This document shows positions 7,629-63,264 of a stretch of 64,000 nucleotides of DNA, piece after piece. Every line of letters starts with the position of its first letter. The stretch's first letter is position 1. This DNA is from Patescibacteria group bacterium (GTDB lineage Bacteria; Patescibacteriota; Minisyncoccia; Phycocordibacterales; PALSA-1337), in NCBI GenBank assembly GCA_038064415.1, contig JBBTTD010000002.1, forward strand, positions 8,865 to 72,864. Direction: 5' to 3'. The notes under the pieces are model-generated. The model was not told the origin of the DNA. It saw only the letters and a list, made by a program, of their open reading frames with translations, and did not search any database. The position numbers and the translations under genes were made by a program.

Positions 7629-7877
7629 ATGGTAAATGAAATCAAGCCAAATGGAATTTATACAACCAGCGAGACGCAAAGCTACTTGCGTATAAGTGAA
7701 AGCACGATCAAGAGAATGCTGAAGAAAGGTCTGATTCGTGCTAACAAGGTTGGTGGACAGTATAGAATTCTTGGAAAAGAGATCTTACGTGTCCTATCAC
7801 CTGATTTGGAAAAGGAGGCAATTAAATCATACTTGGATCTCAAGAAAAAAGTCGTAAAAAAGATAAATAGATGGTAA
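7629..7877 (+). CDS. Helix-turn-helix DNA-binding protein (excisionase/MerR-like HTH_17 type)
   Basis: 82 aa. Motif [37 protein letters not shown] is typical of excisionase-family HTH domains. It is the first gene of the glycan island. Confidence 0.6.
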
Positions 7878-8974
7878 AATCAAAAACTATGAAAAAGAAA
7901 ACGACAAGGAACGCCAAAAGAAAAAAAGCGCTTATTACAGGAATTACTGGTCAGGATGGATCATACCTTGCAGAACTTCTTATTGAAAAAGGATATGAAG
8001 TACACGGACTCATGAGACGATCGAGCTCATTTAACACTTCTCGTATTGATCATCTTTTTCAAGATCCACATACCAAAGGGAAACTATTCACTGGGAGTTT
8101 TGGCGACCTTTCCGACGCAAGCAACCTCTCGCGCCTTATTGAATCTCTAAAGCCAGACGAAATCTACAATCTTGGCGCACAGAGTCATGTGAGAGTAAGT
8201 TTTGATATCCCTGAATATACAGCTGATGTAGTTGGATTGGGAACACTTCGTCTCTTGGATGCAATTAGAGAAAGTGGGGTTAAGACAAAATTTTACCAAG
8301 CCTCGTCCTCTGAAATGTTTGGAAAAGTAACGGAAATTCCTCAAACTGAAAATACCCCTTTCCATCCTCGTTCACCATATGCAGTAGCAAAAGTATTCTC
8401 ATATTGGATCACCAGAAATTATCGTGAGTCATATAATCTTTTCGCGGTAAATGGGATTCTTTTTAATCACGAATCTCCTCGCCGAGGAAAGACATTCGTC
8501 ACTAAGAAAATTACCCGGGGATTAGCACGTATTAAGCTAGGACTTGATGAAAAATTATACCTTGGAAACCTTGATGCAAAACGCGATTGGGGACATGCAA
8601 AAGATTATGTATACGGCATGTGGTTAATGCTCCAACAAGACAAACCAGATGACTACATACTTGCGACTGGTGAAAATCATTCTGTACGTGAATTCGTTGA
8701 AGAAGTTGCAAAATACTTTGACATCGATCTGATGTGGAGAGGAAAAGGAGTAAAAGAAAAAGGAATTGACAAAAAAACTGGTAAAATAATCATTGAGATT
8801 GATCCTATATATTTTAGGCCAGCTGAAGTTGACCTGCTCATTGGTGATGCATCAAAAGCAAGAAAAAAGCTTGGATGGAAACCTAAAATTCGTTTTAAAG
8901 AATTAGTAAGATTGATGTGCGAACATGATCTGAAAGAAGAAAAATATGCAAAGCAAATTCTTGCAAATGAATAA
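7871..8974 (+). CDS. gmd: GDP-mannose 4,6-dehydratase
   Basis: Near-colinear match to Gmd: [77 protein letters not shown]. Confidence 0.95.
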
Positions 8975-9908
8975 CTATATGAATAAAGAATCAAAAATAT
9001 ATGTAGCTGGACATACTGGTCTCGTTGGAGGAGCAATTTTTAGATTACTTAAACAAAAAGGTTACAAAAATCTTATTGGCAAGACACACACCGAGCTCGA
9101 TCTTGAAAATGAATCACAAGTAAAAACATTTTTTGAAAAAGAAAAACCTGAGTATGTATTTTTATGCGCCGCAAAAGCAGGTGGAATAAAAGACAACAGC
9201 GAGAAACCTGCTGAATTTATTTTAAGAAACCTTAAAATACAGACCAATGTTATAGATACGGCATATAGAAACCAAGTAAAAAAACTTCTTTTTATGGGAA
9301 GCTCATGCATATATCCACGGATTACAGAACAGCCCATTAAAGAGGACTACTATATGACAGGAAAGCTTGAACCGACAAATGAAGCATATGCTGTCGCAAA
9401 GATTGCCGGCATATCAATGTGTCAATCATACAGAAAACAATATGGCTGTGATTTTATTTCTGTCATGCCAAACAACATTTATGGACCAGGTGATCATTTT
9501 GAAATAGAGCGTTCACATGTAATACCTGCTTTGATTCGTAGATTCCATGATGCAAAAAAAGAAAACAAGAAAGAGATCGTGCTTTGGGGTACGGGAGTCG
9601 CAATTCGAGAATTTCTCCATTGTGATGATTTGGCTAGTGCAAGCTTATTTCTAATGAAAAACTACAGAGATAAGGAAATTATTAATGTTGGTACAGGAGT
9701 CGGTATATCAATCAAAGATCTCGGAACAATGATACGGAAGATTGCTGGTTTTGAAGGCAAAATCGTATGGGATTCAACAAAACCTGATGGAATGCCGATA
9801 CGACTCCTTGATGCCTCAAAGATTCAATCGCTTGGTTGGAAAGCGAAAATTGATTTTGATAAAGGCCTAAAGGAAACATATGAATGGTTTATTGAACATG
9901 TTGTATAA
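8946..9908 (+). CDS. fcl: GDP-4-keto-6-deoxymannose 3,5-epimerase/4-reductase (Fcl / ColC-type)
   Basis: [61 protein letters not shown] are Fcl hallmarks. ColC (GDP-colitose synthase) is a close homolog and cannot be excluded. Confidence 0.9.
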
Positions 9909-9926
9909 AAAAATAAAATTAAACCA

Positions 9927-11120
9927 ATGAAAAAATCTACTGGATTTAGGGTGCCACTAGTCAAAAATGCTTTAATAAATAATAAGCAAGCACTGCAGGC
10001 GTTATCCACATTCATTTTGAAGACTGACAGATTAAGCATGGGCAACTATTGTCATGCTTTTGAGCTAGCATTTGCAAAAAAACAAAAACGAAAATATGCA
10101 ATACTTTTCAACAGTGGCGGTAGTGCAAATTTGGCGATGATTCAAACTCTAAAAAACTTGGGTAAGTTAAAAAATAAAGATAAGGTCGGTTTCTCTTCCT
10201 TGACTTGGTCTACGAATGTTATGCCTATAATCCAGTTGGGACTTGAAGCGATTCCAGTAGATTGCGATCCTACAACACTCAACAGTATGTCAAAAAATGC
10301 AATAAAAATATTAGAAAAGGAGAAGTGTTCAGCATTTTTTCTGACAAATGCACTAGGATTTGCTGGAGACATAGACATCATAGAAAAAGAGTGTAAAAAA
10401 AGAGGAATTATTGTGCTTGAAGATAACTGTGAAGCCTTGGGAACTGAACTTAATAAAGGAAAAACTGGAAATTTTGGTTTAGCTTCAAGTTTTTCTTTTT
10501 TCGTTGCCCATCATATGTCAACGATTGAGGGTGGTATGGTCTGTACAGACAACGATAATTTTGCAGAAATGCTCAAAATTGTGAGGGCTAACGGATGGGA
10601 TAGAAACATCAGTCCAGAAAGACAAATCTATTGGAGAAATAAATTTGGAATTGAATCTGATTTTCAAGCCAAATATACTTTCTATGATCTGGGTTACAAT
10701 CTTCGTCCAACTGAAATTACAGGATTCCTAGGCCTACATCAGTTGAAGTTTCTTGATAAAACAACAAAAATCCGTGAAAAGAATTTTAGACGAATTTACA
10801 AAGTTCTCAAAGAGAATGGTGACTTTCTCCCTCTTAACTGGAAACATATAAAGATAATCTCAGCATTTGCCATACCACTTATATGCAAAAATCCAAAGCT
10901 TAGAGAAAAATACATCAGGCGGTTTGAGAAGATGGGAGTAGAAGTTCGTCCAATGATTGCTGGAAATATGCAACGACAACCTTTTTATAAAAAATATTCT
11001 TCTAAAAATTATAACTTACCTGGTGCAGATATTATCCATTATAACGGATTTTATTGTGGTAACTGCCCAGATTACACGGAAGAAGAACTCAAAATAATAA
11101 TAGGCTGCATAAAAAAATGA
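9927..11120 (+). CDS. DegT/DnrJ/EryC1 family PLP enzyme with His replacing the Schiff-base Lys (ColD/E1-like sugar 3-dehydratase)
   Basis: Fold-type I aminotransferase family. At the position of the PLP lysine (FSFFGNKTITTGEGG in perosamine synthase) this protein has FSFFVAHHMSTIEGG, the His substitution characteristic of GDP-4-keto-6-deoxymannose 3-dehydratase ColD and CDP-hexulose 3-dehydrase E1. Confidence 0.65.
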   Translation: MKKSTGFRVPLVKNALINNKQALQALSTFILKTDRLSMGNYCHAFELAFAKKQKRKYAILFNSGGSANLAMIQTLKNLGKLKNKDKVGFSSLTWSTNVMPIIQLGLEAIPVDCDPTTLNSMSKNAIKILEKEKCSAFFLTNALGFAGDIDIIEKECKKRGIIVLEDNCEALGTELNKGKTGNFGLASSFSFFVAHHMSTIEGGMVCTDNDNFAEMLKIVRANGWDRNISPERQIYWRNKFGIESDFQAKYTFYDLGYNLRPTEITGFLGLHQLKFLDKTTKIREKNFRRIYKVLKENGDFLPLNWKHIKIISAFAIPLICKNPKLREKYIRRFEKMGVEVRPMIAGNMQRQPFYKKYSSKNYNLPGADIIHYNGFYCGNCPDYTEEELKIIIGCIKK

Positions 11121-13231: not shown

Positions 13232-13236
13232 CAGTA

Positions 13237-13926: not shown

Positions 13927-14829
13927 ATGGCGAAAATATTTATAGGAATGCCAGTCTATAATGGCGAGCGCTTTATAAAAAGTGCTGTTGACTCAATAGT
14001 AAATCAAACTTTTAATGACTGGAAACTATTTATCTCTGATGATGGTTCTAGTGATAACACTAGTATTATTTGTAAAGAATATTCTAATTCTGATCCAAGA
14101 ATTGAATACTACAGACAACCAAAAAATACAGGACTGTTTGAAAACTTTAAATATGTGCTTGATAAGGCGGATTCGAAATATTTTATATGGTGCGCGCAGG
14201 ATGATATTAGAGAAAAAGAATATTTTGAAATATGTATACATAAATTAGAAGAGAACAAAGACTTGAGTTTTGCTACCACCACAATGGCCGCAATTGATTC
14301 GTTTGATAGAATATTGATTGTTGAGGACCAGCTTACAAAGTTATCTGGCAAACCAAGTATGATAAATGTCGCTAAATATGTTTTACAGCCAGAAATATTA
14401 GGAAAATGTAATCTGATGTATGGACTTTTCAGAACTGAAGTTGTAAAAATGGTCTGGAAAGCATATCCACAAAGAAGTGTTTGGGGTCAGGATTATATGT
14501 TTTCATTAGCTTTAATAAGTCGCTTTGAAATATTTGTCGACAGAAAAATTCTTTTCAAAAAACGTTTAGGAGGATTTTCTAGTCCTAAGGCACTTTTAAA
14601 TGACACCGACAATATGGTAAAAAAAATTGAATACAAAAATCCAAAAAATCAAATGTTCCCATTAGGTGAATTCAAGGATTATTTTAAAGGACATATGGAA
14701 GCATTAAAAGGAACACCTTATCGTAGCTTAACTGCTATACTTCTTTTGATTCGTCTGCCAAGATCATTTGTTATATATTTAAAAGAGAGAAATATAAAGA
14801 AATATTTAAATCATATCATTAACAAATAA
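13927..14829 (+). CDS. Glycosyltransferase family 2
   Basis: IGMPVYNGERFIKSAVDSIVNQTF...ISDDGSSDNT is a GT-A DXD-type N-terminus. Confidence 0.8.
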   Translation: MAKIFIGMPVYNGERFIKSAVDSIVNQTFNDWKLFISDDGSSDNTSIICKEYSNSDPRIEYYRQPKNTGLFENFKYVLDKADSKYFIWCAQDDIREKEYFEICIHKLEENKDLSFATTTMAAIDSFDRILIVEDQLTKLSGKPSMINVAKYVLQPEILGKCNLMYGLFRTEVVKMVWKAYPQRSVWGQDYMFSLALISRFEIFVDRKILFKKRLGGFSSPKALLNDTDNMVKKIEYKNPKNQMFPLGEFKDYFKGHMEALKGTPYRSLTAILLLIRLPRSFVIYLKERNIKKYLNHIINK

Positions 14830-14830
14830 G

Positions 14831-15724
14831 ATGACGGTAATCATCAAAACAATCGGTGGCTTAGGAAACCAATTATTTCAATACGCATTTGCGCGTGGTA
14901 TATCTTCACATCTTGAGACAAGCTTCCTTTTAGATATTGACACATCGGTTGTTTATAAAAATGAAAGAGTTCATGAATTTTCACTTCAACATTTTAATGT
15001 GACCATACCTATGGCTAAATGGTATCATATGTACGGCTTTGTGTGGCTACGAAGACAGAAACGGCTCTTTAATTTTATTTATCACAAGTTACGTCTAAAA
15101 AAAATGTTTTCTTCTTTTTACTTTATTGAGAGATTATTTTGCTTTGATGAAAATGTACTTTCAAAGGGTGATGGTTCATATTTTGAAGGATTCTGGAACA
15201 CAGAAAAATATTTCAAAAATATAGAAAAAGAGATTAGAAAGGAAATCATCATCAATAAACCACTCTCTGAATACGGGCAAAAAATAAATGATGAGATTAT
15301 GAAGAAAAATTCTATATCACTACATGTAAGACGCACAGATTATGTCACTCACAAGATTTCAAATGAGTATCATGGGACATGTTCTCAAGAATATTATAAA
15401 AATGCTATTAAATATGTAGCAGAAAGAGTACCTTCACCACATTTTTTCATCTTCTCTGATGATTATGGTTGGGTAGTTGAAAATTTCAAATTCCTTCAAT
15501 ATCCTTACACTTGCATAAAAAATGGACCAGAAAAAAATTATGAGGATTTAACACTTATGTCCAAATGTAAACACCATATAATAGCAAATAGTACATTCAG
15601 TTGGTGGGGTGCATGGCTCAATCCCAAAAAAGACAAGATTGTTATTGGGCCAAAACAGTGGTTCAAAAATGCTCCGAAAGCAAATACGGTAGATCTTTTC
15701 CCAGATGGTTGGATAAAATTATAA
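14831..15724 (+). CDS. Glycosyltransferase family 11 (alpha-1,2-fucosyl/colitosyl-transferase type)
   Basis: GT11 motifs GGLGNQLFQYAFA, HVRRTDY, FIFSDD, ANSTFSWWGAWLN. Confidence 0.85.
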   Translation: MTVIIKTIGGLGNQLFQYAFARGISSHLETSFLLDIDTSVVYKNERVHEFSLQHFNVTIPMAKWYHMYGFVWLRRQKRLFNFIYHKLRLKKMFSSFYFIERLFCFDENVLSKGDGSYFEGFWNTEKYFKNIEKEIRKEIIINKPLSEYGQKINDEIMKKNSISLHVRRTDYVTHKISNEYHGTCSQEYYKNAIKYVAERVPSPHFFIFSDDYGWVVENFKFLQYPYTCIKNGPEKNYEDLTLMSKCKHHIIANSTFSWWGAWLNPKKDKIVIGPKQWFKNAPKANTVDLFPDGWIKL

Positions 15725-15731
15725 TGCTGCA

Positions 15732-17480
15732 ATGTGCGGAATAATCACTATAGTAGGAAATAATGTAGATAGCATAATTGGAGACATCAAAATAAACTCC
15801 ATGCTTTCTTCTCTTGCAAAAAGAGGACCAGACGATAGGGGTTTTTTGAAATTCAGTAATGCTATAGTCGGGCAAACTCGTCTTTCTATAGTTGATATTG
15901 CCGATGGCCATCAACCAATGAGAGATAATAGAAACCCTTTTACGATTGTATTTAACGGTGAAATCTATGGATACAAGGAGTTACGTAAAAGATTAGAGAC
16001 ATGCGGACATAAATTCAGTAGCAATTCCGATACTGAAGTTATATTGAAATCATATGCAGAATATGGAAATAGATGCCCTGAGTATTTGGATGGTATGTTC
16101 GCCTTTGCAATTTGGAATGAATCTAAACAGGAACTTTTTGTTGCTCGAGACAGATTCGGGAAAAAGCCATTTTATTATGCGTGGGTAAACGAAATGTTCT
16201 TGGGAGTTTCAGAAATAAAAGCTATCTTTGAGAGTGGACTCATAAAAGGAAAAATTGATCTTAGTGTATTAGATAATTATCTTCAGCTTATGTATATACC
16301 GCCATGGAAAACTATCTATTCTAACATTCAGACTATTTTGCCGGCTCATGCAGGGATCATCAAAGATGGGAAAATTAAAACCTGGAAATACTGGGAACTT
16401 AAGAAGAAAATTTTAAACATATCTTATGATGATGCAAAAAAAGAGATAAAAAGACTTTTTGATGAGGCAGTTAGAAAAAGAATGGTAGCGGATGTTGAAA
16501 TTGGAAGTCTTCTGTCTGGAGGTGTGGACTCTACCTTGGCTACAGCTTATGCACAAAGATATGCAACTCATCCAATCAAGACATTTTCCGTTGGTTATGA
16601 TCAATATATAAACGAGCTACCTTACGCTAAACAGGCCTCAAAAAAAATCGGTACAGATCATTATTCGCTCAATGCCGGAATCAACCTGATCAATGAACTG
16701 GAGAAAGTCGTAGAATATATGGATGAACCACATGCTGACTCCTCGGATTTTCCACAACATTTAATATCAGAGTTTGCTTCCTCAAAAGTAAAAGTGGCAT
16801 TATCCGGCGATGGTGCTGATGAACTGTTTCTAGGATATGGCTGGAATTGGAAATACTGGAATACAAGAAAAATCGTCAGACTAAAAAATATGATTTTCTC
16901 AAATCAATTCAAGGAGCATTTAAAAAATGTTGAAGTGTTTTCTAGAAAAAATCGCCTTGGTTTATGGAAAGATAAATCTCCAGTAAATTCTGAAATTGAG
17001 AAAAGGGACATCAATAATATCAATCTTTTTGATCTAACCACATATCTTCCAGGCCAGCTTCTTACAAAAATTGACAGAACAAGTATGATGCATTCCCTAG
17101 AAATACGCTCTCCTTTTCTAGATTATAAACTTGCGGAATTCGTATACAACTTACCTGAAAAATATAAAACGGACAGAAAAAGCGGTAAGATCATTTTGAA
17201 GGATATCTTGATGGAAATAATGCCCAGGGAATTTGTTTATAGGAGAAAACAGGGCTTTGGCGCGCCGATCAAGGAATGGCTTCGGACTGAAAACACTCGA
17301 CAATTTGTCCAAAAAAATTTATTAGAAAGTTCGAGTCTAGGAAATATATTCAACACACACGAAATAGTTGACCTGCTAGATAATTTTTATAAAAAAAATA
17401 ATGAGAGTGTTCAATATAAGATATGGACTTTATTGTGTCTAGCACTATGGTTCAAGTCTCACCAAAAACATCATGAATAA
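15732..17480 (+). CDS. asnB: Asparagine synthase (glutamine-hydrolysing) family amidotransferase
   Basis: N-terminal MCGI with catalytic Cys2, a GATase II domain, and the PP-loop SLLSGGVDST. In a glycan cluster it probably amidates a uronic acid or a similar substrate. Confidence 0.9.
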   Translation: MCGIITIVGNNVDSIIGDIKINSMLSSLAKRGPDDRGFLKFSNAIVGQTRLSIVDIADGHQPMRDNRNPFTIVFNGEIYGYKELRKRLETCGHKFSSNSDTEVILKSYAEYGNRCPEYLDGMFAFAIWNESKQELFVARDRFGKKPFYYAWVNEMFLGVSEIKAIFESGLIKGKIDLSVLDNYLQLMYIPPWKTIYSNIQTILPAHAGIIKDGKIKTWKYWELKKKILNISYDDAKKEIKRLFDEAVRKRMVADVEIGSLLSGGVDSTLATAYAQRYATHPIKTFSVGYDQYINELPYAKQASKKIGTDHYSLNAGINLINELEKVVEYMDEPHADSSDFPQHLISEFASSKVKVALSGDGADELFLGYGWNWKYWNTRKIVRLKNMIFSNQFKEHLKNVEVFSRKNRLGLWKDKSPVNSEIEKRDINNINLFDLTTYLPGQLLTKIDRTSMMHSLEIRSPFLDYKLAEFVYNLPEKYKTDRKSGKIILKDILMEIMPREFVYRRKQGFGAPIKEWLRTENTRQFVQKNLLESSSLGNIFNTHEIVDLLDNFYKKNNESVQYKIWTLLCLALWFKSHQKHHE

Positions 17481-19536: not shown

Positions 19537-21348
19537 ATGCACAAGCATGAGATTTTTTCTGAGCGGAATGATCCGGTATTGCTGAAGAAAATAACTCGAA
19601 AAATAAGGGGCCTTTTTTCTGGACCATGTGAGCGTATTCTCCTCATAAACATACCACAGGTAGCCGAAGCAGATTTCGATCTTCCCACAGCCAAACTTGC
19701 TCGGTACCCTTGTTTCCCTCCTTGTGGTGCGGGCTTGCTATCACGCGATTTACGAGATGTGGGATATCAGACTAAACTTCTTGATCTGAACTTCGAGATA
19801 CTCTCTCGAGTAAAAGAGTCGGATTTCCATTATAATCTGTGGCAAAATTCAGTAGATCAAGTGATCAAAATTTTTGTCCCGAATCTGATTGGAATAAGTT
19901 GTATGTTTTCCATGACGCACGCTTCAATGCGGGCAGTTGTAGATTATATAAAAAGACACCATCCTCATATACCAATCATAGCTGGAGGTGTACATGTATC
20001 CGGTAATGCAGCGATGGTCTTGAATGAGATTAAAGGAGTAGATCTTGCTCTCCGTTATGAAGCAGATATTGCCTTAGTCACAGTAGTTGATTTTATAAAT
20101 GGCAAGACAACAGAAAATCAACTGACTCAAATAGCGACATCAGTAGAAGGAGAATATCTAGAAATAACGGAAAGAAGCATTCCAGACGGTAATAAAGTAA
20201 ATTATTCTCCAGAATACGATGACCTGCCAATCGGTAATTACAGTTTAACTGGAAGTATCGGTGCTTATCATTGGCTTCGTACTGATCATCCGCCCGTAGG
20301 CACCATCCTTGCAAATAGAGGGTGTAGGGCTGCTTGCACTTTCTGTTCTGTCCATAGTTTTAATGGCGCGGGAGTCCGAAGTAGGACTGCAACTACTGTA
20401 GTAGATGAAATGGAGAGAATGGTCCAAAAATATGGCATCAAGCATTTTATGTGGCTTGATGACGACCTTTTTAGACCAGACTCTGCGGTGGAACTCTTTC
20501 CTGAAATCACTAGGAGAAGACTGGGTATAACATGGGATGCTTCAAACGGCGTGATTGCAAGAGCTTCTACTCCAGAAATGATACATGCGGCTTCGGAATC
20601 CGGATGTATCGGTCTGAGTTTTGGAATAGAATCTGGCAATCCAAAAATACTGAGGGACGTAAAAAAACCCAGTACCGTTGAACATTTCAAAGATGTAAGT
20701 CAAACTCTGAAAAACTATCCAAGAATGTTTTCCAAGGGTTTCCTAATGGTAGGATTTCCTGACGAAAACATCGGTCAAATTCGAGACACTGTAAATCTTG
20801 CTGTAGACATGGCTCTGGATTGGTATCCTATCCAAATTCTTTCCCCTTTTGGTGGGACAATAATGGCAAAGGCACTAGTCAAGAAAGGAGTAGTGGACGA
20901 ACATTCAGTCCTATCTTCAAATATGTTTGTCGGTGTTACCGGCAAGCAGAGAGTGAAGGAAAGACTTGAAACTACCTCTAGCGTCTTTAATCACGAAATT
21001 CTGGATGCTGATCAAGATCAGATGCGTGTTCCATCTAAGGAAGAAATGGCGGATATCTGGTTCCTTATGGATTACAGAGTCAACTACGAGCAGATTCCAA
21101 ACCAGATCAATCCAATCAAATTGGCTATGAAACGCCTCATGCTTCGTGATGTTCGGGACAGAGTCCCTAAACATATTCCAATGGCAAGTCTCTTCCTTGG
21201 GATCATTAACCAAAAGCTTGGTAATCATGAAGAAGCTAAAGAAAACTTCATGGAGACAGAGCAATATCTTAAGGAATCAGTCTTTTGGCAAGTGCGTTTT
21301 AAGAAGCTTGGCTTAATCAATCTTCTCAGAAAACTTAGCAATGACTAG
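19537..21348 (+). CDS. B12-binding domain radical SAM protein (class B radical SAM family)
   Basis: N-terminal cobalamin-binding-like domain, then the CxxxCxxC cluster motif CRAACTFC at ~aa 265, and a long C-terminal extension. Confidence 0.8.
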   Translation: MHKHEIFSERNDPVLLKKITRKIRGLFSGPCERILLINIPQVAEADFDLPTAKLARYPCFPPCGAGLLSRDLRDVGYQTKLLDLNFEILSRVKESDFHYNLWQNSVDQVIKIFVPNLIGISCMFSMTHASMRAVVDYIKRHHPHIPIIAGGVHVSGNAAMVLNEIKGVDLALRYEADIALVTVVDFINGKTTENQLTQIATSVEGEYLEITERSIPDGNKVNYSPEYDDLPIGNYSLTGSIGAYHWLRTDHPPVGTILANRGCRAACTFCSVHSFNGAGVRSRTATTVVDEMERMVQKYGIKHFMWLDDDLFRPDSAVELFPEITRRRLGITWDASNGVIARASTPEMIHAASESGCIGLSFGIESGNPKILRDVKKPSTVEHFKDVSQTLKNYPRMFSKGFLMVGFPDENIGQIRDTVNLAVDMALDWYPIQILSPFGGTIMAKALVKKGVVDEHSVLSSNMFVGVTGKQRVKERLETTSSVFNHEILDADQDQMRVPSKEEMADIWFLMDYRVNYEQIPNQINPIKLAMKRLMLRDVRDRVPKHIPMASLFLGIINQKLGNHEEAKENFMETEQYLKESVFWQVRFKKLGLINLLRKLSND

Positions 21349-21378: not shown

Positions 21379-21413
21379 GACCTCACCGCATTATGTGTGT
21401 GGGGTCTTTTTTT
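21379..21413 (+). terminator. Rho-independent terminator after the radical SAM gene
   Basis: Stem GACCTCAC (21379-21386) pairs with GTGGGGTC (21399-21406) with one G-U, a 12-nt loop, then TTTTTTT at 21407-21413. It lies between convergent genes. Confidence 0.45.
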
Positions 21414-22437
21414 ATTTTATCTGTTCACGTGCCCACTCAATTGTCCTCTCCAAACCTTTGTCAAAAGTAGTAAAATTGAACCTTTTCATTTCCTTTATTA
21501 TCTTGCTAAGATCGAGTCTGACAACTACTGGGTCTTTTCCAATATGTGAAATTGTTGATCTTGTTTTTGGAATTTTACATGACGCTTTTGTATATTTTGA
21601 AATCTTTTTCGCAAGCTCATATATTGAAATACTGTCTTGACCACCCACATTGTAAACCATATCTTTTCCTTTAAAAGCAGTGAAAAATATCATGGAAATA
21701 ACATCAGTAATATAGCCATAGGTCTTAACTGCCCTTCCTTCATCCAAGAGAATTATATTCTTTTCAACAAGCGCTTTTCTGATAAAATCGCTCATAACTC
21801 GCGTGTCACTGATTGGAAGCCCTGGACCATAGATATGTGATATTCTGACTATTTTTACATTAGTTCCATTCTTCATCTTATATGCCGAGCAAAGCGCTTC
21901 TCCAAGTCGCTTTGATTCACCATACACAGATCGTGGTTTGTGAAGAGGGTGATTTCCATTGTAATCTTCTTTTGTTGGAATAAATTCAGAAAGAACCTCC
22001 CCATAAATTTCCGCGGAGCTAAAATAAATAAAAGTACTTTTAGGCGACCACTTGAGAAGCTCAGATGTAGCATTTACATTTATTTTTACAAGCGAAAGGG
22101 GGTCATCAATAAATTTTGCAGGCTGACCATATCCAGCAGCATGAAAAATATAGTCAAATCCTTTAAGATTAAACTCTCCAGATAAATCTACCTTCTTAAA
22201 TTTCACCATAGGATCACCCTCAAGTATTGAAGAGAATGATCTCTTTGGACTAGAAAATCCAACAGCATAAATTAACGCGTTAAGCTTCAATTCATTATTC
22301 GCTAAGGATAGTGCAGCAACAACATATTGACCCAAAAAACCAGTCGCACCAGTCACGAGTATTTTTTTCCCTTTTATTTTTGTGAAATCAACCCTTGAAA
22401 GGATCTCCCGACAATCCTGCTCAATAATCTTATTCAT
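21412..22437 (-). CDS. NAD-dependent epimerase/dehydratase (extended SDR)
   Basis: The ORF is trimmed to the internal Met (MNKIIEQ, ATG at 22437) to avoid overlap. Rossmann motif ILVTGATGFLGQYVV and catalytic YGESK (YxxxK). Confidence 0.8.
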   Translation of the reverse strand: MNKIIEQDCREILSRVDFTKIKGKKILVTGATGFLGQYVVAALSLANNELKLNALIYAVGFSSPKRSFSSILEGDPMVKFKKVDLSGEFNLKGFDYIFHAAGYGQPAKFIDDPLSLVKINVNATSELLKWSPKSTFIYFSSAEIYGEVLSEFIPTKEDYNGNHPLHKPRSVYGESKRLGEALCSAYKMKNGTNVKIVRISHIYGPGLPISDTRVMSDFIRKALVEKNIILLDEGRAVKTYGYITDVISMIFFTAFKGKDMVYNVGGQDSISIYELAKKISKYTKASCKIPKTRSTISHIGKDPVVVRLDLSKIIKEMKRFNFTTFDKGLERTIEWAREQIK

Positions 22438-24271
22438 GACTTTCAACCTTTTTGACCTTTGGACCACCCCCAGGAAGAGGAGGATTCTCCCAACCCTCAA
22501 CAGGCTCAATAATCATGTTTTTTTTGAATTCCTCTCTTGGCAAATATGGGTACATATCTTCAATGGGAGTGTTCCATCCAAAAACTCTAGGTTCGTACGC
22601 ATACCAATCCCCACAATCAACATCACAGATAATTGGCCCGTTGAAAGAAAGTACCTCCCTGATCATTTTTCGAGAATCTTGGTTTTTGGAGATTTTCTTT
22701 GTTGCGACTCCATATGCATCAGTAATTTTTATAAAATCTGGCGGGACATAACCTTTTGGACCAGACGCTTCGTGTCTAGATTCAACATTTGTATCTTGAA
22801 AAGCTTTGATAATTCCATAGAAATGATTGTTGATGATAAAGGTTTTGATCTTGATACCATATGTAATGAGAGTTTGAATCTCCTGAATATTCATATTAAA
22901 ACCTCCATCACCGATGATACATACTACACTTCTTTTTTTATCAGCGGCAAACCACGAACCCATTGCTCCACAAAAAGAGAACCCCATCGGTGAGTTACCA
23001 TTATTTGTAATATAGTTCTGACCATTTTTTGTCTCAAACGCGTGATTGCTTGTTACAATGTTCCCCCCACAATCAGCCACAAGCACATCTCCTTTCTTCA
23101 TTTCTTCTGATAAGATACGCATAAAAGAGTACGGATTGACCTTGCCTTTGGCTTTAATAAATTCTTGACGAACGGGATCGTATTTATTCTTCCATGTCAT
23201 GACCTGTTTTGTCCAAGAGGAGACATCTGGAAGATTTATCTTTTCAAGCTTAATCATTAGTCTTTCAAGAAAGATCTTCGCGTCAGAATATATGCTGACA
23301 TCAAAAGGAACTTGCTGAAGTTTTTTTTGAAGTAGGGCGGGATCAACATCCACAACATACTTTTTCGCGCCCCTGGCAAATGTTTTCAAATTTCCACCAG
23401 TTATGCGTCCAGATATTCTACTTCCAATTGCTATAAGTAGATCACTATTTTGCAAACCAAAATTTCTTCCTCTACCACCGTATGTTCCAACTCGTCCACC
23501 ATAATATTCATAATCAGAAGGCACGACTTCTAGGGCATTCCATGTTGGAAACATTGGAATTTTTAGTATTCTACCGACTTTCTGTAAAAATGCTGTGCCT
23601 TTTGCAATGCCAACACCACCCCCAATAAGCATTACAGGTCTTTCTGATTTTATTAAATCCTTGAGCAATTGGTCTATTTGTTTATCAATAACATCAATGT
23701 CGTAATTTACACGATGTGCTTTCTCGTCAAAGCCGATCAGCTTTGTAGGATCTATCTCTGTTTTCTGCAGATTCATGGGGATATCCAGAAGAACTGGCCC
23801 AGGTCTTCCGTCTGTCGCAAGAAATAAGGCCTTTTCAAGTTCATATTTAATGTCTTCTGCTTTTCTTATCAATTTGGAATATTTTGTAATTGGGGATGTA
23901 ATAGCAACAATATCAGTCTCTTGAAATCCAACTTGTCTTATTGTAGGATCTGCACGCAAAAAATCAGAATTTATCTGCCCTGTTATAAAAAGTGCCGGTA
24001 CGGAATCGTAAAAGCAATTACCAATAGGAGTGACTAAATTCATGCCGCCTGGACCACTAGTCGCAATAGCAACACCGGAAATACCTTTAACTTTTGCATA
24101 CCCCTCTGCCGCAAAACCAGCTGCCTGTTCGTGCATCATGGCCACATATTTGGTCTTTTTCGTACGCGTAAAAGCATCAATCAGATATGCATTAGCGGCA
24201 CCTGAAACAACAAACATTCTGTCAATCCCCTTATCAGCGAGGTAATTTATGACGAAATCAGATAATTTCAT
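22430..24271 (-). CDS. Thiamine-pyrophosphate-dependent enzyme, acetolactate-synthase-like (YerE-like candidate)
   Basis: 613 aa with the three ALS-type domains: TPP_N (VVSGAANAYLIDAF), a central domain, and TPP_C (IIGDGGFNMNIQE with GDG). The ~50-aa C-terminal tail is unusual. Its location in a sugar cluster argues against a branched-chain amino acid role. Confidence 0.8.
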   Translation of the reverse strand: MKLSDFVINYLADKGIDRMFVVSGAANAYLIDAFTRTKKTKYVAMMHEQAAGFAAEGYAKVKGISGVAIATSGPGGMNLVTPIGNCFYDSVPALFITGQINSDFLRADPTIRQVGFQETDIVAITSPITKYSKLIRKAEDIKYELEKALFLATDGRPGPVLLDIPMNLQKTEIDPTKLIGFDEKAHRVNYDIDVIDKQIDQLLKDLIKSERPVMLIGGGVGIAKGTAFLQKVGRILKIPMFPTWNALEVVPSDYEYYGGRVGTYGGRGRNFGLQNSDLLIAIGSRISGRITGGNLKTFARGAKKYVVDVDPALLQKKLQQVPFDVSIYSDAKIFLERLMIKLEKINLPDVSSWTKQVMTWKNKYDPVRQEFIKAKGKVNPYSFMRILSEEMKKGDVLVADCGGNIVTSNHAFETKNGQNYITNNGNSPMGFSFCGAMGSWFAADKKRSVVCIIGDGGFNMNIQEIQTLITYGIKIKTFIINNHFYGIIKAFQDTNVESRHEASGPKGYVPPDFIKITDAYGVATKKISKNQDSRKMIREVLSFNGPIICDVDCGDWYAYEPRVFGWNTPIEDMYPYLPREEFKKNMIIEPVEGWENPPLPGGGPKVKKVESHE

Positions 24272-24360
24272 ATATTAAAAAATACTATAACAGATTGCTT
24301 ATTTATGCAACACGAACATTTCAGCTGGTGTCCGAACCACTGAACCTACTTGATTGTCTC

Positions 24361-25599
24361 TTATTTTTTAATTACACTTTCTACTGCTCTATTCAATCTT
24401 CTACAGCCCTCCCGAAGTTTTTCTTCAGTATTTGCATAACATACCCGTACATAATTTTTTCCTCCTGGACCAAATCCTGAACCTGGACACACGACAACTC
24501 CTTCTGTCTCCATGGCATGTTTAGTAAATTCATCTCCATTCATGCCGGTCTTAGTAACGTCAATCATCAAATAAAAAGCTCCGCGAGGCTTTGAAAATTC
24601 AAATTCGGAAATTTTTCCTAATTCTTCGCATACGATATCTCTAAGCTTTCTGTATTCATGTAGATATCTTTCAGAAAATTCATTTCGGCACTCTATAGCT
24701 GTGACGCAAGCGTCCTGTAAAAATGGTGGCACACAAGACACTATTGTTTGAGATAGTAAGGCAATTTTTTGAATAATCTTTTCAGGGCCAACGGCGTAAC
24801 CAACTCGCCATCCTGTCATCGCGAATGGTTTAGAGAAGCCATTGGTAACTATAACTCGCTCACGACATTCATCTAGAGTACCGACACAAAAATGTTTCCC
24901 TTCATATACCATTCTAGCGTATATTTCATCACTTAATATCAATATATTATGCTTCTTGGCTAATTTATATATCTTTATAAGATCGTCTTTTGTATAAACT
25001 GCTCCCGTTGGATTGGATGGAGAGTTAATGACTATAATGCGTGTTTTGGGAGTAATACAATCTTCAATTGATGACGGATTCATGCGAAAACCGTCTTTAT
25101 GGGTAACTGGGATATGGATACCTTTTATATTCAACATATTTATCACAGCATTGTATGTAACGAAAGATGGGTCAGCTAAAATCACTTCTTCGCCCTCGTT
25201 AACAAGTATTGAAAAAATATAAAATATAAGAGGATTAGCTCCAGAAGTAACAACTATTTGAGAGAGGTCTGGTTCAAAAGAAAAATCTTCAGAAATAGAT
25301 TTCTGAATAGCGACCCTCAATGTATGCTCACCATAAGAACTACCATAATGGGTATTCCCAGCGTTAATAGAAGAAATAGCTACATCTTTAACTTTTTGTG
25401 GCATTTCAAGATGCGTATCGCCAATTTCAAAATGAATTAATTTTTTTCCATGCCTTTCTAATTCCTTTGCCTTTTCCAACACTTGAAACATTGATTGACC
25501 GACTATCTTATCAGCAAATTCTGAAAGTCTGATTCCAGAGTCCGTTATATTGATTTTATTCATAACGGATAGTATATGCCCCTTTAATATAGCGGTCAA
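24361..25599 (-). CDS. Class I/II pyridoxal-phosphate-dependent aminotransferase
   Basis: 412 aa aspartate-aminotransferase-fold enzyme (NPSNPTGAVYTKDDL, SKPFAMTGWRVGY with the PLP-Lys). Confidence 0.85.
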   Translation of the reverse strand: MTAILKGHILSVMNKINITDSGIRLSEFADKIVGQSMFQVLEKAKELERHGKKLIHFEIGDTHLEMPQKVKDVAISSINAGNTHYGSSYGEHTLRVAIQKSISEDFSFEPDLSQIVVTSGANPLIFYIFSILVNEGEEVILADPSFVTYNAVINMLNIKGIHIPVTHKDGFRMNPSSIEDCITPKTRIIVINSPSNPTGAVYTKDDLIKIYKLAKKHNILILSDEIYARMVYEGKHFCVGTLDECRERVIVTNGFSKPFAMTGWRVGYAVGPEKIIQKIALLSQTIVSCVPPFLQDACVTAIECRNEFSERYLHEYRKLRDIVCEELGKISEFEFSKPRGAFYLMIDVTKTGMNGDEFTKHAMETEGVVVCPGSGFGPGGKNYVRVCYANTEEKLREGCRRLNRAVESVIKK

Positions 25600-28968: not shown

Positions 28969-29954
28969 TGTATAATTCAAGAATGATATCTATGGATAAT
29001 ACCATTAAAACTCCAATTGCTTTCTTTGTTTTTAATAGACCAAATATAACCCAGAAGGTTTTTAATGAAATAAGAAAAGCGAAACCCGAAAAACTTTTCC
29101 TCGTTGCCGACGGACCTCGAAATCAGGCAGAAAAACAAAAGTGTGATGACGTTAAAAAAATAATTGGAAATGTAGATTGGAAATGCGAAGTCTATAAAAA
29201 TTATTCAGTTATCAATATGGGGTGTGATCCGCGAATTGCTTCTGGCATAAATTGGGTATTTCAAAATACAGACAGAGCAATATTCCTTGAAGATGATTGC
29301 TTTCCCAATCAATCGTTTTTTCGATTTTGTGATGAATTGCTAGAAAAATATAAGGACGACAAAGAAATTATGCACATAAGCGGAGATAATTTCCAGACTG
29401 GAAACAAGAAATTCAAATGTAAAGAAGATTATTATTTCTCAACGATATCGCAAAGTTGGGGGTGGGCGACATGGAAAAGGTCTTGGAATCTTTATGATAA
29501 AGATTTAAAAAGATGGCCTGAAGCAAAAAAATCCAACTTATTAGGTAAAATCTTTGACGACAAGGCATATGCAGATTATTGGGAAAATTTACTTCAGAAA
29601 TTCTACGAGAGACAGAGAGTAAACTGGGATGGACGGTGGACATTCGCCTGTTTTGTTAATAGAGGATTATGTATAATGCCGAAAGTAAACCTTATCTCAA
29701 ACATCGGCTTTGGTGAAAGTGCTACTCATACGAAACAACAAAAACACAAATCTGCTAATCTTCCAACATATCCTATTGAGTTTCCGCTGACACATCCGGA
29801 TAAGAAAACAACTAACCAGATAGCCGACGATTATACTATGAAACAATTTTTTGGGGTAAACGAAAACTTAAAACAGACAATAAAATGGTGGCTTAAATCA
29901 ATGTTCCCTGCGCCATATCGGTATTTAAAAAATCTCCATTATAGAAATATATGA
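28968..29954 (+). CDS. Putative GT-A-fold glycosyltransferase / nucleotide-diphospho-sugar transferase-like protein
   Basis: 328 aa. The N-terminus IAFFVFNRPNITQKVFNEI...LFLVADGPR resembles GT-A-like transferases. Weak. Confidence 0.35.
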   Translation: MYNSRMISMDNTIKTPIAFFVFNRPNITQKVFNEIRKAKPEKLFLVADGPRNQAEKQKCDDVKKIIGNVDWKCEVYKNYSVINMGCDPRIASGINWVFQNTDRAIFLEDDCFPNQSFFRFCDELLEKYKDDKEIMHISGDNFQTGNKKFKCKEDYYFSTISQSWGWATWKRSWNLYDKDLKRWPEAKKSNLLGKIFDDKAYADYWENLLQKFYERQRVNWDGRWTFACFVNRGLCIMPKVNLISNIGFGESATHTKQQKHKSANLPTYPIEFPLTHPDKKTTNQIADDYTMKQFFGVNENLKQTIKWWLKSMFPAPYRYLKNLHYRNI

Positions 29955-30880
29955 AAAAAATAATTATCATCAGAAGCTCCGGCAATGAACTCGCAAATCA
30001 ATTATGGAACTATGCGAGCATATATGCTTATTCTCTTGAGAAAAAATATTCAATAGTTAATTCATCATTTTTTGAATATGGAGAATATTTTAATTTTAAA
30101 TCCGCGCCAAATTTATTATTCAGAATCATGTTTTTTAGACCATTTAGAAATTACACAAAAAGAAAAACCGCGATTAAAAGGAGGGTTTGGAGAAAAATGT
30201 ATTCTTGGTATTCTATGATTGTGTTATTTTTAAATAAAAAAAATACTGTCACAACTGCGAATGAAGTATGCTATTTACCACCGACAAAGCAACCAGATTT
30301 TAAATTGAAAATGTTGGAAAATTCTAATGATGACATATACCTTGATGGTTGGCTTTTCAGAAATCCAATCGGTCTCGAAAAATTTAGAAAAGAAATTAAA
30401 AAAACTTTTATACCTAGAAAGGATGTGCGGATCACGGTAGAATCAACGATTGGAAAAATTAGATCTGATTATAATAAAATTGTCGGATTACACATTCGCC
30501 AAGGAGATTATATGACATGGAGAAATGGTGATTATTTTATTGAACAAAAAAGAGTTCGAGAAATAATTGACGAATTCATCTCAAATTTTAATATAGATAA
30601 AAACAAAACTTGTTTTTTGATAGCCTCGGATGGTCCGATTGATAAAGAAATATTCTTTGATCTGAACATTTTTATAAGCAAAAACAATGCGGTAACTGAT
30701 CTTTATCTGCTTTCATGTACAGATGCGATAATAGGGTCAAATAGCACCTTTGGTGCCTTTGCTTCATATTATGGCAATGTCCCACTTATAGTTATGCAAA
30801 AAGATCCTATGGATTGGCAATATTATAGTGGTAGGCAGAAGTATTTTGAAAATAAATACTCTACCTTCGTTCAATATTAG
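29951..30880 (+). CDS. Divergent glycosyltransferase family 11-like (second fucosyl/colitosyl-transferase-type)
   Basis: Parallels the GT11 motifs: SSGNELANQLWNYASIYAYS (vs GGLGNQLFQYAFA), HIRQGDY (vs HVRRTDY), LIASDGP, IIGSNSTFGAFASYYG. Confidence 0.55.
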   Translation: MKKIIIIRSSGNELANQLWNYASIYAYSLEKKYSIVNSSFFEYGEYFNFKSAPNLLFRIMFFRPFRNYTKRKTAIKRRVWRKMYSWYSMIVLFLNKKNTVTTANEVCYLPPTKQPDFKLKMLENSNDDIYLDGWLFRNPIGLEKFRKEIKKTFIPRKDVRITVESTIGKIRSDYNKIVGLHIRQGDYMTWRNGDYFIEQKRVREIIDEFISNFNIDKNKTCFLIASDGPIDKEIFFDLNIFISKNNAVTDLYLLSCTDAIIGSNSTFGAFASYYGNVPLIVMQKDPMDWQYYSGRQKYFENKYSTFVQY

Positions 30881-63177: not shown

Positions 63178-63264
63178 GATAGTTATAGTTTAAATTATAA
63201 ACATTTTATATTATACAACAAAAGTTCACTATGCGCATTACTAGATTTCTGTCGAGGGTAGGCA

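Follow-up and report, generated by a model that had tools for sequence, protein, structure and literature searches.

JanthE is described as a characterized YerE-like carboligase that accepts ketones (PMC12188165), and the substrates that two papers describe for YerE-like enzymes are all 3,6-dideoxy-4-keto sugars (PMC9306805, PMC12247030). Other YerE-like enzymes have a donor-supplying aldolase encoded adjacent to them (PMC9306805). The dehydratase ColD regenerates PMP with glutamate (PMC8987622). The window analyzed here, a 64-kb stretch of DNA from a Patescibacteria group bacterium, contains an ABC-transporter-type glycan island of roughly 37 kb (~7.9 to 44.6 kb), within which a block on the minus strand encodes an aminotransferase, a ThDP enzyme, and an SDR (Table 1). 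Judged by homology and gene context, this block is moderately likely to be the branching module of a GDP-linked pathway to a yersiniose-like branched sugar.

An earlier note had placed the block at 21412-25599. The three ORFs were confirmed, as was the 8-nt overlap between the ThDP enzyme and SDR genes (...GTTGAAAGTCATGAATAAG), in which the SDR ATG occupies 22437-22435 and the ThDP enzyme TAA occupies 22432-22430. The far end of the block had to be revised, since the maximal aminotransferase ORF has its TTG at 25599, while a start at the ATG at 25563 is supported by a 400-aa database protein (P0121) that matches 100% of the aminotransferase query with 100% identity. The aminotransferase, ThDP enzyme, and SDR genes are co-transcribed, and the SDR is translationally coupled to the ThDP enzyme through the overlap.

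Table 1. Genes of the branching block, the predicted acceptor-sugar genes, and a neighboring radical SAM gene, in window coordinates.
Feature	Coordinates	Strand	Remarks
GDP-mannose 4,6-dehydratase (Gmd)	7871..8974	+	TIGR01472, 578 bits (cutoff 415); Pfam GDP_Man_Dehyd 2.2e-151
Fcl/ColC-like GDP-sugar epimerase-reductase	8946..9908	+	NF047922 GDP-L-fucose synthase, 455.6 bits (under the cutoff of 500)
ColD-type PMP-dependent 3-dehydratase	9927..11120	+	Closest solved structures: ColD of E. coli, 184-190 bits
B12-binding radical SAM enzyme	19537..21348	+	Pfam B12-binding and Radical_SAM; convergent with the SDR gene
Extended SDR, 341 aa from ATG	21412..22437	-	Pfam Epimerase 3.2e-40
YerE-like ThDP-dependent carboligase, 613 aa, probably FAD-binding	22430..24271	-	Pfam TPP_enzyme_N/M/C
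Class I (AspAT/aromatic-AT-like) PLP aminotransferase	24361..25563	-	First gene of the operon; Pfam Aminotran_1_2 1.2e-61

The B12-binding radical SAM enzyme is possibly an accessory C-methyltransferase, and its membership in the pathway is uncertain; the loci most closely related to this one (L001, L006, and L033) do not have it at the corresponding place. Nonorthologous B12-binding radical SAM genes directly adjoin the ThDP enzyme gene in three related loci (L011, L024, and L025) and lie ~2 to 4 kb from it in two others (L008 and L034).

The ThDP enzyme matches TPP_enzyme_N (4.7e-31), TPP_enzyme_M (2.4e-23), and TPP_enzyme_C (1.5e-32), so the middle domain for which the earlier note had proposed a check is present. 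Among solved structures it is closest to JanthE (8RPH, 314 bits) and the 5AHK protein (281 bits), which we take to be PpYerE; both score higher than any AHAS, plant AHAS reaching 248 bits. A neighbor-joining tree (300 bootstraps, a small outgroup sample, and without YerE of Yersinia pseudotuberculosis, ErwE, or MMAR_2332) joined the window clade to the JanthE clade at 99% and both to the 5AHK clade at 99%, while IlvB, IlvI, Gcl, and PoxB of Escherichia coli fell outside this grouping. The enzyme thus groups with YerE-like enzymes rather than with IlvB, IlvI, or Gcl, as had been suggested. Identity to the characterized YerE-like enzymes is only ~32%, and the window clade forms a tight subfamily of its own, with identities of at least 59%. 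The enzyme has the GDG...NN motif and the catalytic Glu, and it has in common with the JanthE clade the C-terminal tail PIEDMxPxLPREEF and a Pro-Arg/Lys pocket residue. On this basis, we assign the ThDP enzyme to the YerE-like family and propose that it would decarboxylate a 2-oxo acid and attach the acyl group at C4 of the acceptor.

Gmd is predicted to produce GDP-4-keto-6-deoxymannose. The ColD-like dehydratase claimed for the island is real: the 9927-11120 product is closest to ColD structures, with lower scores against E1 (119 bits) and perosamine synthase (80 bits), and in its motif AHHMSTIEGG a His replaces the PLP lysine of the aminotransferases. We propose that this enzyme makes GDP-4-keto-3,6-dideoxymannose, the candidate acceptor. 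The same His in place of Lys occurs in a DegT gene close to the ThDP enzyme gene in 12 related loci, which also hold Gmd homologs with 48 to 75% identity. The island Gmd and His-type ColD, together with the His-type dehydratases of these 12 loci, support a 4-keto-3,6-dideoxy GDP-sugar as the acceptor. The Fcl/ColC-like gene is assigned to a parallel route leading to GDP-fucose or GDP-colitose, outside the branching step itself. It is unlikely that the YerE-like enzyme instead branches another acceptor, such as GDP-4-keto-6-deoxymannose with its 3-OH kept, a GDP-heptose derivative, or another NDP-4-ketosugar, with ColD and the Fcl-like enzyme serving only a separate colitose branch. The Gmd, Fcl-like, and ColD genes do form a plus-strand unit of their own, ~10 kb from the module and on the opposite strand; the two GT11 genes in the island suggest that colitose or fucose is also made; and GHMP kinase, NTP-transferase, and HAD genes in some related loci recall GDP-heptose synthesis. 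However, a His-type dehydratase gene directly adjoins the aminotransferase/ThDP enzyme/SDR block in L005, L010, L011, L023, and L026, and in L013 one GT11-like gene alone lies between the two. The 3,6-dideoxy-4-keto substrates described above for YerE-like enzymes also speak against such acceptors.

The SDR carries the GxxGxxG and YxxxK motifs, and its SSAEIYG motif is without the dehydratase Asp. Its best solved relative is 8V4G (96 bits), with UDP-xylose synthase close behind at 94. The SDRs of ~290 to 306 aa encoded beside JanthE-clade and 5AHK-clade enzymes are not orthologous to it. The pairing of ThDP enzyme and SDR is kept in L001 to L006, L010, L013, L023, L026, and L033, a set that spans phyla. 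A ketoreductase role fits the overlap with the ThDP enzyme gene, the retention of the pair across phyla, and a nearest solved relative that reduces a nucleotide-linked ketone, and we propose that the SDR is an NAD(P)H ketoreductase for the new branch carbonyl, in the manner of YerF.

The order aminotransferase, ThDP enzyme, reductase would also fit an Ehrlich-type side pathway with no sugar branching, in which the aminotransferase forms a 2-oxo acid, ThDP-dependent decarboxylation gives an aldehyde, and the SDR reduces it to an alcohol. In another form of this idea, the aldehyde would be a direct nonsugar substituent of the glycan, comparable to the route from cysteate through sulfopyruvate and sulfoacetaldehyde to isethionate. 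The SDR or the 3-dehydratase is indeed missing from the fetched sequence of some related loci. Such a pathway is nonetheless improbable, given that the ThDP enzyme lies in the YerE-like carboligase clade and that its middle domain is one typical of AHAS-like ligases. Sulfopyruvate and phosphonopyruvate decarboxylases are not known to have this domain. Furthermore, no phosphonate genes, including PEP mutase, were found among the scanned ORFs of the window; the SDR belongs to the nucleotide-sugar group of extended SDRs; and a pathway of this kind would not explain why linkage to Gmd and His-type 3-dehydratases recurs.

The best solved relative of the aminotransferase is the aromatic aminotransferase of Pyrococcus horikoshii (1DJU, 248 bits), and two features are conserved in the alignment, namely NGFSKPF, the motif with the PLP Lys, and the Arg of YVRVCYA, which we take to be the alpha-carboxylate-binding Arg of class I aminotransferases. 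A DegT-type sugar aminotransferase was rejected, because the match to PF01041 reaches just 34 bits over a partial stretch versus 209 bits for PF00155. We therefore classify it by homology as an amino-acid/2-oxo-acid enzyme of the AspAT/aromatic-AT type of class I. Identity in its homolog list falls abruptly from 62% to 47%. All three homolog contexts sampled (65%, 70%, and 46% identity) have a gene for a three-domain ThDP enzyme nearby, directly downstream in L034, beyond one short ORF in L033, and ~5 kb away in L032. The aminotransferase gene is thus linked to the ThDP enzyme gene even at 46% identity. It is not obligatory, since it is absent from the sequence retrieved around the ThDP enzyme gene in five loci (L009, L011, L013, L023, and L026). 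At the pocket motifs compared, ThDP enzymes do not differ between loci that have the aminotransferase and loci that lack it, so the sequences give no sign of a different donor. The aminotransferase is most likely the source of the 2-oxo-acid donor and may, in addition, recycle from 2-oxoglutarate the glutamate consumed by ColD. Its presence suggests a donor other than plain pyruvate and hence a branch that is perhaps other than the two-carbon branch of yersiniose.

The earlier note had also raised the possibility of further amination, which in its explicit form would have the ThDP enzyme use pyruvate to add an acetyl branch, whose carbonyl the aminotransferase would then aminate to give a 4-C-(1-aminoethyl) dideoxyhexose. 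A few class I/II enzymes, HisC for example, take ketones without an alpha-carboxylate. The aminotransferase gene is co-transcribed with and directly upstream of the ThDP enzyme gene, and transaminases can further modify acetyl branches in secondary metabolism (PMC9306805). Even so, amination of the branch is quite improbable and did not gain support: the enzyme is an AspAT/aromatic-AT-type one in which the PLP Lys and the putative alpha-carboxylate Arg are in place, the sugar aminotransferases known are members of the DegT family and its own match to that family is weak, and the translationally coupled SDR, present in most aminotransferase-bearing loci, would be left with no ketone as its substrate.

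A genuine acetolactate or acetohydroxyacid synthase for branched-chain amino acids, lying in the glycan island by chance, is exceedingly improbable and was ruled out, for although TIGR00118, a model of the ALS large subunit, gives the top NCBIfam match (E = 7e-118) and relatives are labeled "acetolactate synthase large subunit" in the source databases, the score of 394.5 bits is under the cutoff of 538.35, as it is under that of every NCBIfam ALS model, the scanned ORFs of at least 150 aa in the window (all but two at 62209-63864) include no small-subunit gene (ilvN), ilvC, or ilvD, in line with the claim that branched-chain amino acid genes are distant, the tree sets the enzyme apart from IlvB and IlvI at 99%, and every relative examined keeps a glycan context.

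In the GDP-linked branching pathway that we favor, the island Gmd and the ColD-type 3-dehydratase, both identified by homology, would convert GDP-mannose to GDP-4-keto-3,6-dideoxymannose. The class I aminotransferase would convert an amino acid to a 2-oxo acid, the amino acceptor probably being the 2-oxoglutarate released whenever ColD regenerates PMP from glutamate. After decarboxylation of this 2-oxo acid by the YerE-like enzyme, the enzyme would join the acyl-anion equivalent to the C4 ketone, yielding a 4-C-acyl tertiary alcohol whose branch carbonyl the coupled SDR, like YerF, would reduce to a 1-hydroxyalkyl group. An island glycosyltransferase would attach the branched 3,6-dideoxyhexose to the glycan, which would be exported by the Wzm/Wzt ABC transporter. 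The core of this idea, a YerE-like enzyme and a reductase acting on the product of Gmd and a ColD-like enzyme, was already in the earlier note and is supported by the tree, the middle domain, the lack of phosphonate and branched-chain amino acid genes among the scanned ORFs of the window, and the recurrence of the ThDP enzyme gene beside Gmd and His-type 3-dehydratase genes in relatives. If true, the pathway would be of the yersiniose type but coupled to GDP and an aminotransferase, a variant that many uncultivated bacteria and archaea share.

Like YerE/YerF of yersiniose A synthesis in Y. pseudotuberculosis, the module places a ThDP enzyme with three domains, from the AHAS-like decarboxylase superfamily, next to a predicted NAD(P)H reductase and is encoded alongside genes for a 4-keto-3,6-dideoxy nucleotide hexose. 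The predicted chemistry, acyl addition at C4 and then reduction of the branch carbonyl, is also the same (PMC9306805, PMC12247030). It differs in the predicted nucleotide (GDP via Gmd and a ColD-type enzyme, where yersiniose uses CDP via E1/E3), in a C2 configuration that would be manno-derived, in the co-transcribed class I aminotransferase, and in an SDR from another extended-SDR subgroup than the short SDRs encoded next to YerE-like genes elsewhere. With JanthE (8RPH) and the 5AHK protein, the ThDP enzyme shares domain order, the catalytic Glu, and the Pro-Lys/Arg pocket residue, but its clade has the canonical GDG where JanthE has CDG and has Phe at the position of JanthE V121. The erwiniose (ErwE/ErwF/ErwI/ErwJ), caryophyllose (MMAR_2332), and MyGE clusters resemble this locus in that an adjacent gene makes the non-pyruvate 2-oxo-acid donor of the YerE-like enzyme (PMC9306805); there, however, the supplier is a pyruvate aldolase and the sugars are CDP-linked, whereas the supplier proposed here is a class I aminotransferase, its place taken in L026 by a PanB-like 2-oxo-acid enzyme. 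The SDR resembles HS5.17 (8V4G), which is a CDP-6-D-glucitol synthase from Campylobacter jejuni and an extended SDR with an N-terminal extension ahead of the Rossmann fold that reduces a nonring (open-chain) ketone on a nucleotide-linked sugar, but the similarity is only 96 bits, and substrate and nucleotide differ. Finally, the Gmd, Fcl/ColC-like, and His-type ColD-like genes in a row at 7871-11120 match the colitose pathway (Gmd, ColD, and ColC), from which the locus would differ in diverting the ColD product at least partly to C4 branching, beyond reduction by ColC.

The block at 21412-25599 consists of three co-directional genes on the minus strand, encoding a class I aminotransferase, a ThDP enzyme, and an extended SDR. 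The earlier note had recognized all three from the sequence alone, and its observation is borne out by ORFs at those sites and by Pfam assignments for each (see table). The 8-nt overlap it described is also real, with the ATG of the SDR gene lying inside the stop region of the ThDP enzyme gene (ATGAATAA). The ThDP enzyme gene lies 89 nt downstream of the aminotransferase gene. The maximal aminotransferase ORF begins with a TTG at 25599 and contains an ATG at 25563; we took the latter as the start because the 400-aa database protein P0121 matches the query at 100% identity and 100% coverage.

The block lies within a glycan island of ∼37 kb (about 7.9 to 44.6 kb of the window). One flank of the island encodes SecA, MurB, and a Wzy_C+TPR protein, while Mur ligases, an MraY-like gene, and pyruvate kinase are found downstream. 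GC content is 0.32 to 0.37 between ∼10 and 40 kb compared to 0.38 to 0.44 in the flanks, which fits a hypervariable surface-glycan region subject to horizontal exchange. Besides the genes in the table, the island encodes several methyltransferases, many GT2 and GT4 enzymes, and one PMT_2-type GT-C enzyme. Given the Fcl/ColC-like gene and the two GT11 genes, fucose or colitose is probably a further product of the island, which would transfer it as well.

Features of the block and the surrounding glycan island, with positions in the window
Feature	Position	Strand	Match or remark
Wzy_C (O-antigen-ligase-like) + TPR protein, 755 aa	5218-7485	-	Island border
Gmd	7871-8974		TIGR01472, 578 bits, above cut-off
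Fcl/ColC-like gene	8946-9908		455.6 bits, just below the Fcl equivalog cut-off of 500
ColD-like gene, DegT family	9927-11120		ColD structures are the best match
Wzm/Wzt ABC exporter	11131-13231
Wzt ATPase, 434 aa, including the next gene	11927-13923	+	ABC domain at residues 73-204 only
GT11 gene (alpha-1,2-fucosyltransferase family)	14831-15724
AsnB-like glutamine amidotransferase	15732-17480	+
B12-binding radical SAM gene	19537-21348	+	Between GT2b and SDR
SDR, 341 aa	21412-22437	-	Pfam Epimerase, 3.2e-40
ThDP enzyme, 613 aa	22430-24271	-	Pfam TPP_enzyme_N, 4.7e-31; TPP_enzyme_M, 2.4e-23; TPP_enzyme_C, 1.5e-32
Aminotransferase	24361-25563	-	Pfam Aminotran_1_2 (PF00155), 209 bits, 1.2e-61
ORF, 328 aa	28968-29954	+	No Pfam or NCBIfam match
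GT11 gene (alpha-1,2-fucosyltransferase family)	29951-30880

Several other island genes have counterparts in related loci. The architecture of the Wzy_C+TPR protein recurs in a 756-aa protein that adjoins Gmd in locus L032 (4399-6669). In a bacterium that presumably has no outer membrane, the window protein could serve the exported glycan as a ligase or an O-oligosaccharyltransferase. A CmcI/rhamnosyl-O-methyltransferase-like gene directly follows that of the long Wzt ATPase. We take this order to resemble that of ABC-exported O-antigens with a methylation-capped chain end that is read by a C-terminal domain of Wzt. The order GT11a, AsnB, GT4a, and GT2b is kept in the CPR relatives L001 to L004, L006, and L033 (GT4a was not detected in L006), and the AsnB-like gene is not linked to the ThDP enzyme gene in more distant loci. 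The 328-aa ORF has a homolog, 45% identical, in an archaeal (Pacearchaeota) glycan locus (L009, 19348-20253).

The candidate acceptor pathway is encoded in the same island. The DegT family protein matches Escherichia coli ColD structures at 184 to 190 bits, compared to 119 for E1 and ∼80 for perosamine synthase. Its sequence AHHMSTIEGG aligns with SHHIATMEGG of ColD, placing a histidine at the PLP-lysine position, and Gmd is encoded two genes upstream. It is chiefly the replacement of this lysine by histidine that sets 3-dehydratases apart from aminotransferases, and ColD lacks the Fe-S cluster and the E3 partner of E1 (PMC8987622). Nothing like an E3 reductase was seen in the window. An Fe-S cysteine motif meant to separate E1-type from ColD-type enzymes gave no matches, even in an E1-length control from locus L019, and is therefore uninformative. 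The histidine substitution, the lack of a visible E3, and the neighboring Gmd identify the protein as a predicted ColD-type GDP-4-keto-6-deoxymannose 3-dehydratase. Together with Gmd, it is predicted to produce GDP-4-keto-3,6-dideoxymannose, the GDP analog of the YerE substrate.

The earlier note had set the ThDP enzyme beside genes for a 4-keto-3,6-dideoxyhexose, and related loci agree with this placement. Histidine (as HH, HQ, or HI) occupies the lysine position in all 10 DegT neighbors of the ThDP gene that were examined first and in 2 more examined later, 12 loci in total, while an unrelated DegT protein in a JanthE-clade locus keeps the lysine. In several loci, Gmd, Fcl-like, and His-type DegT genes are close to the ThDP gene. 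The orders are Gmd, three short ORFs, Fcl-like, His-type DegT, aminotransferase, ThDP enzyme, and SDR (L010); aminotransferase, ThDP enzyme, SDR, epimerase, and His-type DegT (L005); Gmd, ThDP enzyme, SDR, His-type DegT, epimerase, and Fcl-like (L023); Fcl-like, ThDP enzyme, SDR, His-type DegT, and PanB-like (L026); and, in SAR11, Gmd, Fcl-like, one unassigned ORF, His-type DegT, GT11, ThDP enzyme, and SDR (L013). Comparative genomics ties 3-dehydratase chemistry to this ThDP clade. It is possible that the carboligase acts on a different acceptor sugar, since the Gmd/Fcl-like/ColD unit is ∼10 kb from the block in the window and some related loci look heptose oriented; the recurrent His-type linkage speaks for a 3,6-dideoxyhexose acceptor.

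The SDR contains GxxGxxG and YxxxK motifs, and its SSAEIYG sequence lacks the Asp of RmlB-type 4,6-dehydratases. Its nearest solved relative, 8V4G, is a weak match (96 bits), and this likeness is only suggestive because UDP-xylose synthases score nearly as well (94 bits). 8V4G had been annotated as a putative nucleotide sugar dehydratase, carries an extra helix ahead of the Rossmann fold, and was shown to be CDP-6-D-glucitol synthase, an NADPH ketoreductase that acts on a non-ring ketone of a nucleotide-linked sugar (PMC10918830). Stronger evidence for a ketoreductase role is the conservation of the ThDP enzyme-SDR pair, often with overlapping genes, in L001 to L006, L010, L013, L023, L026, and L033, which mirrors yerE-yerF and erwE-erwF (PMC9306805). 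The ∼290- to 306-aa SDRs encoded next to JanthE-clade and 5AHK-clade genes are not its orthologs, and it is best regarded as an analog of YerF rather than as an established member of the YerF family.

The ThDP enzyme has the N/PYR, middle, and C/PP architecture and falls within the ∼570 to 620 aa expected of YerE-like carboligases. Its ThDP-binding GDG...NN motif is canonical (GDGGFNMNIQEIQTLITYGIKIKTFIINN, residues 454-482), and the catalytic glutamate is Glu48 in MMHEQ. A search of the PDB ranked 8RPH (314 bits, E = 1e-92) first and then 5AHK (281 bits), which we take to be a Pseudomonas protegens YerE homolog, ahead of plant AHAS (∼248 bits) and glyoxylate carboligase (∼179 bits). 8RPH is JanthE, which is described as a characterized, FAD-binding ThDP carboligase of the YerE-like type that accepts ketones (PMC12188165). 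A neighbor-joining tree (586 columns, 300 bootstraps) was built from the window protein, 18 homologs from the related loci, JanthE, 5AHK, and E. coli IlvB, IlvI, Gcl, and PoxB, a sampling without YpYerE, ErwE, and Xsc. The window clade was recovered at 100%, joined by the JanthE clade at 99% and then by the 5AHK clade at 99%, with IlvB, IlvI, Gcl, and PoxB outside. A phylogeny of the kind that the earlier note had called for places the enzyme with the YerE-like proteins. Identity is ∼32% to JanthE and 5AHK versus 27 to 28% to IlvB, IlvI, and Gcl, and the C-terminal tail PIEDMxPxLPREEF is common to the JanthE clade and missing from IlvB, IlvI, Gcl, and PoxB. A Pro-Arg in the enzyme matches K567 of JanthE. 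The middle domain, the presence of which the note had also wanted checked, contains RPVMLIGGG and SRISGRITG motifs resembling those of AHAS and 5AHK, and a Tyr equivalent to JanthE Y268 is conserved; FAD binding by the enzyme is putative. The tree and the structural matches assign the enzyme to the YerE-like carboligase group, and it is predicted to transfer an acyl group from a 2-oxo acid to a ketone acceptor. An Ehrlich-type decarboxylation route would match the order of the genes in the block, but it is a poor fit to the carboligase clade, to an SDR of the nucleotide-sugar type, and to the 3-dehydratase linkage.

The aminotransferase is closest among solved structures to the Pyrococcus horikoshii aromatic aminotransferase 1DJU (248 bits), followed by Thermus AspAT. 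Its NGFSKPF and YVRVCYA sequences align with the matching motifs of 1DJU; we assume that they hold the PLP-binding Lys and the alpha-carboxylate-binding Arg, respectively, of class I aminotransferases. The sugar-aminotransferase family PF01041 (DegT/DnrJ/EryC1) matches weakly and in part (34 bits, residues 103 to 216 only). The solved relatives, the conserved Lys and Arg motifs, and this weak, partial match indicate an amino-acid/2-oxo-acid aminotransferase, and its family assignment and conserved residues led us to reject a sugar aminotransferase. The earlier note had allowed for further amination of the sugar. The type of aminotransferase speaks against amination of the branch carbonyl, which would also leave the coupled SDR without its substrate.

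The aminotransferase gene is linked to the ThDP enzyme gene, though not in every locus. Identity in the list of aminotransferase homologs falls abruptly from 62% to 47%, and many close homologs are on contigs equal in size to those of the ThDP enzyme homologs. A three-domain ThDP gene was found near the homolog in each of three contexts sampled (P0155, 65% identity; P0139, 70%; P0168, 46%); in the P0168 context, the ThDP enzyme is itself only 41% identical to that of the window. In L008, L012, L024, and L025, more distant class I aminotransferases (27 to 41% identity) are encoded at most 7 kb from the ThDP gene. The aminotransferase is missing from the fetched sequence of L009, L011, L013, L023, and L026.

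True AHAS is effectively excluded by model cut-offs, gene context, and phylogeny: TIGR00118, the best NCBIfam model, has a cut-off of 538.35 bits and scores only 394.5, the remaining ALS models likewise fall far short of theirs, and ilvN, ilvC, and ilvD were not found among the scanned ORFs of at least 150 aa in the 64-kb window (a scan that did not include two at 62209-63864). Phosphonopyruvate and sulfopyruvate decarboxylases are two-domain ThDP enzymes that lack the middle domain and are encoded with PEP mutase or sulfonate genes. No model for either was among the best 25 of 51 NCBIfam matches, and we rejected a phosphonate or sulfonate decarboxylase on the presence of the middle domain and on the lack of PEP mutase among the same scanned ORFs.

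The B12-binding radical SAM gene next to the SDR is a window-specific insertion, because GT2b directly adjoins the SDR gene in L001, L006, and L033, the closest relatives. Other B12-binding radical SAM genes adjoin the ThDP gene in L011, L024, and L025 and lie ∼2 to 4 kb away in L008 and L034. At only 22 to 24% identity to the window gene, their orthology is unsupported; their recurrence near ThDP genes hints at recurrent accessory C-methylation.

YerE-like enzymes that use donors other than pyruvate are encoded beside a donor-making enzyme, an aldolase, and two test donors were made in vitro by amino-acid transamination (PMC9306805). L026, which lacks a class I aminotransferase, has a PanB-like (Pantoate_transf) gene at 14168-15151, downstream of its ThDP enzyme, SDR, and ColD-like genes, and a 2-oxo-acid hydroxymethyltransferase of this kind might instead supply a hydroxymethylated 2-oxo acid as donor. 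Because the precedents encode a donor-making enzyme adjacently, as L026 may likewise do, we propose the aminotransferase as the source of the 2-oxo-acid donor. In each turnover, ColD uses up one glutamate, and one 2-oxoglutarate and one ammonium are set free (PMC8987622). The aminotransferase would convert an amino acid and the ColD-derived 2-oxoglutarate to glutamate and the donor; it could in this way regenerate the glutamate for ColD while donor 2-oxo acid and acceptor are formed exactly one to one. The YerE-like carboligase would use this donor on the ColD-made acceptor, with the SDR in the reductase role. The analysis establishes the families of the enzymes, the linkage of their genes, and the His type of the dehydratase; the substrates, the sequence of steps, the reductase function, and the coupling are inferred. 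Loci that have the aminotransferase and loci that lack it encode ThDP enzymes with identical pocket motifs at the positions examined, with no residue differing, so the donor is not predictable from sequence.

Our tentative proposal, in which our confidence as a whole is low, is an undescribed GDP-linked sugar-branching pathway, widespread in uncultivated lineages, in which an aminotransferase stoichiometrically couples ColD-type 3-deoxygenation to a YerE-like carboligase. It would yield a 4-C-(1-hydroxyalkyl)-3,6-dideoxyhexose, whose branch would derive from an amino acid and not be acetyl, on the surfaces of CPR bacteria, DPANN archaea, and SAR11. If the proposal is correct, this sugar is not yet known from any organism, and the recycling of glutamate would be an appealing saving where metabolism is minimal.

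The ThDP clade is tight (at least 59% identity) yet taxonomically very broad, with members in Parcubacteria, Saccharibacteria, Sungbacteria, Liptonbacteria, Pacearchaeota, Woesearchaeota, Pelagibacteraceae, Nitrospira, and bacteria with 4.1-Mb and 6.5-Mb genomes; the cross-lineage loci are L009, L012, L013, L017, L023, and L024. Such a spread implies that the module has been transferred horizontally on a wide scale and across domains. The envelope glycans of Patescibacteria, DPANN archaea, and SAR11 are almost uncharacterized, and the module would carry branching chemistry to their surfaces and to GDP-sugars. It also suggests a testable rule, that the enzyme adjoining the carboligase (aldolase, aminotransferase, or PanB-like) may predict the branch. 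A clade this large and well conserved is in addition a resource for biocatalysis, where ketone-accepting ThDP carboligases are wanted for tertiary alcohols.

The chemistry itself, YerE/YerF-type branching, is known. Undescribed in the literature we found are a subfamily at only ∼32% identity to characterized YerE-like enzymes, the coupling to an aminotransferase, the spread over CPR bacteria, DPANN archaea, and SAR11, and the pairing of a YerE-like enzyme with Gmd and ColD-type partners. Literature on yersiniose, GDP-4-keto sugars, and named branched sugars yielded no description of a GDP-linked YerE pathway; the YerE-like branched sugars reported there come from CDP-linked pathways only, in a few cultured bacteria. 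Whereas those pathways draw on the CDP/E1-E3 route, the module in the window has Gmd and a ColD-type enzyme as partners, which implies a GDP-sugar.
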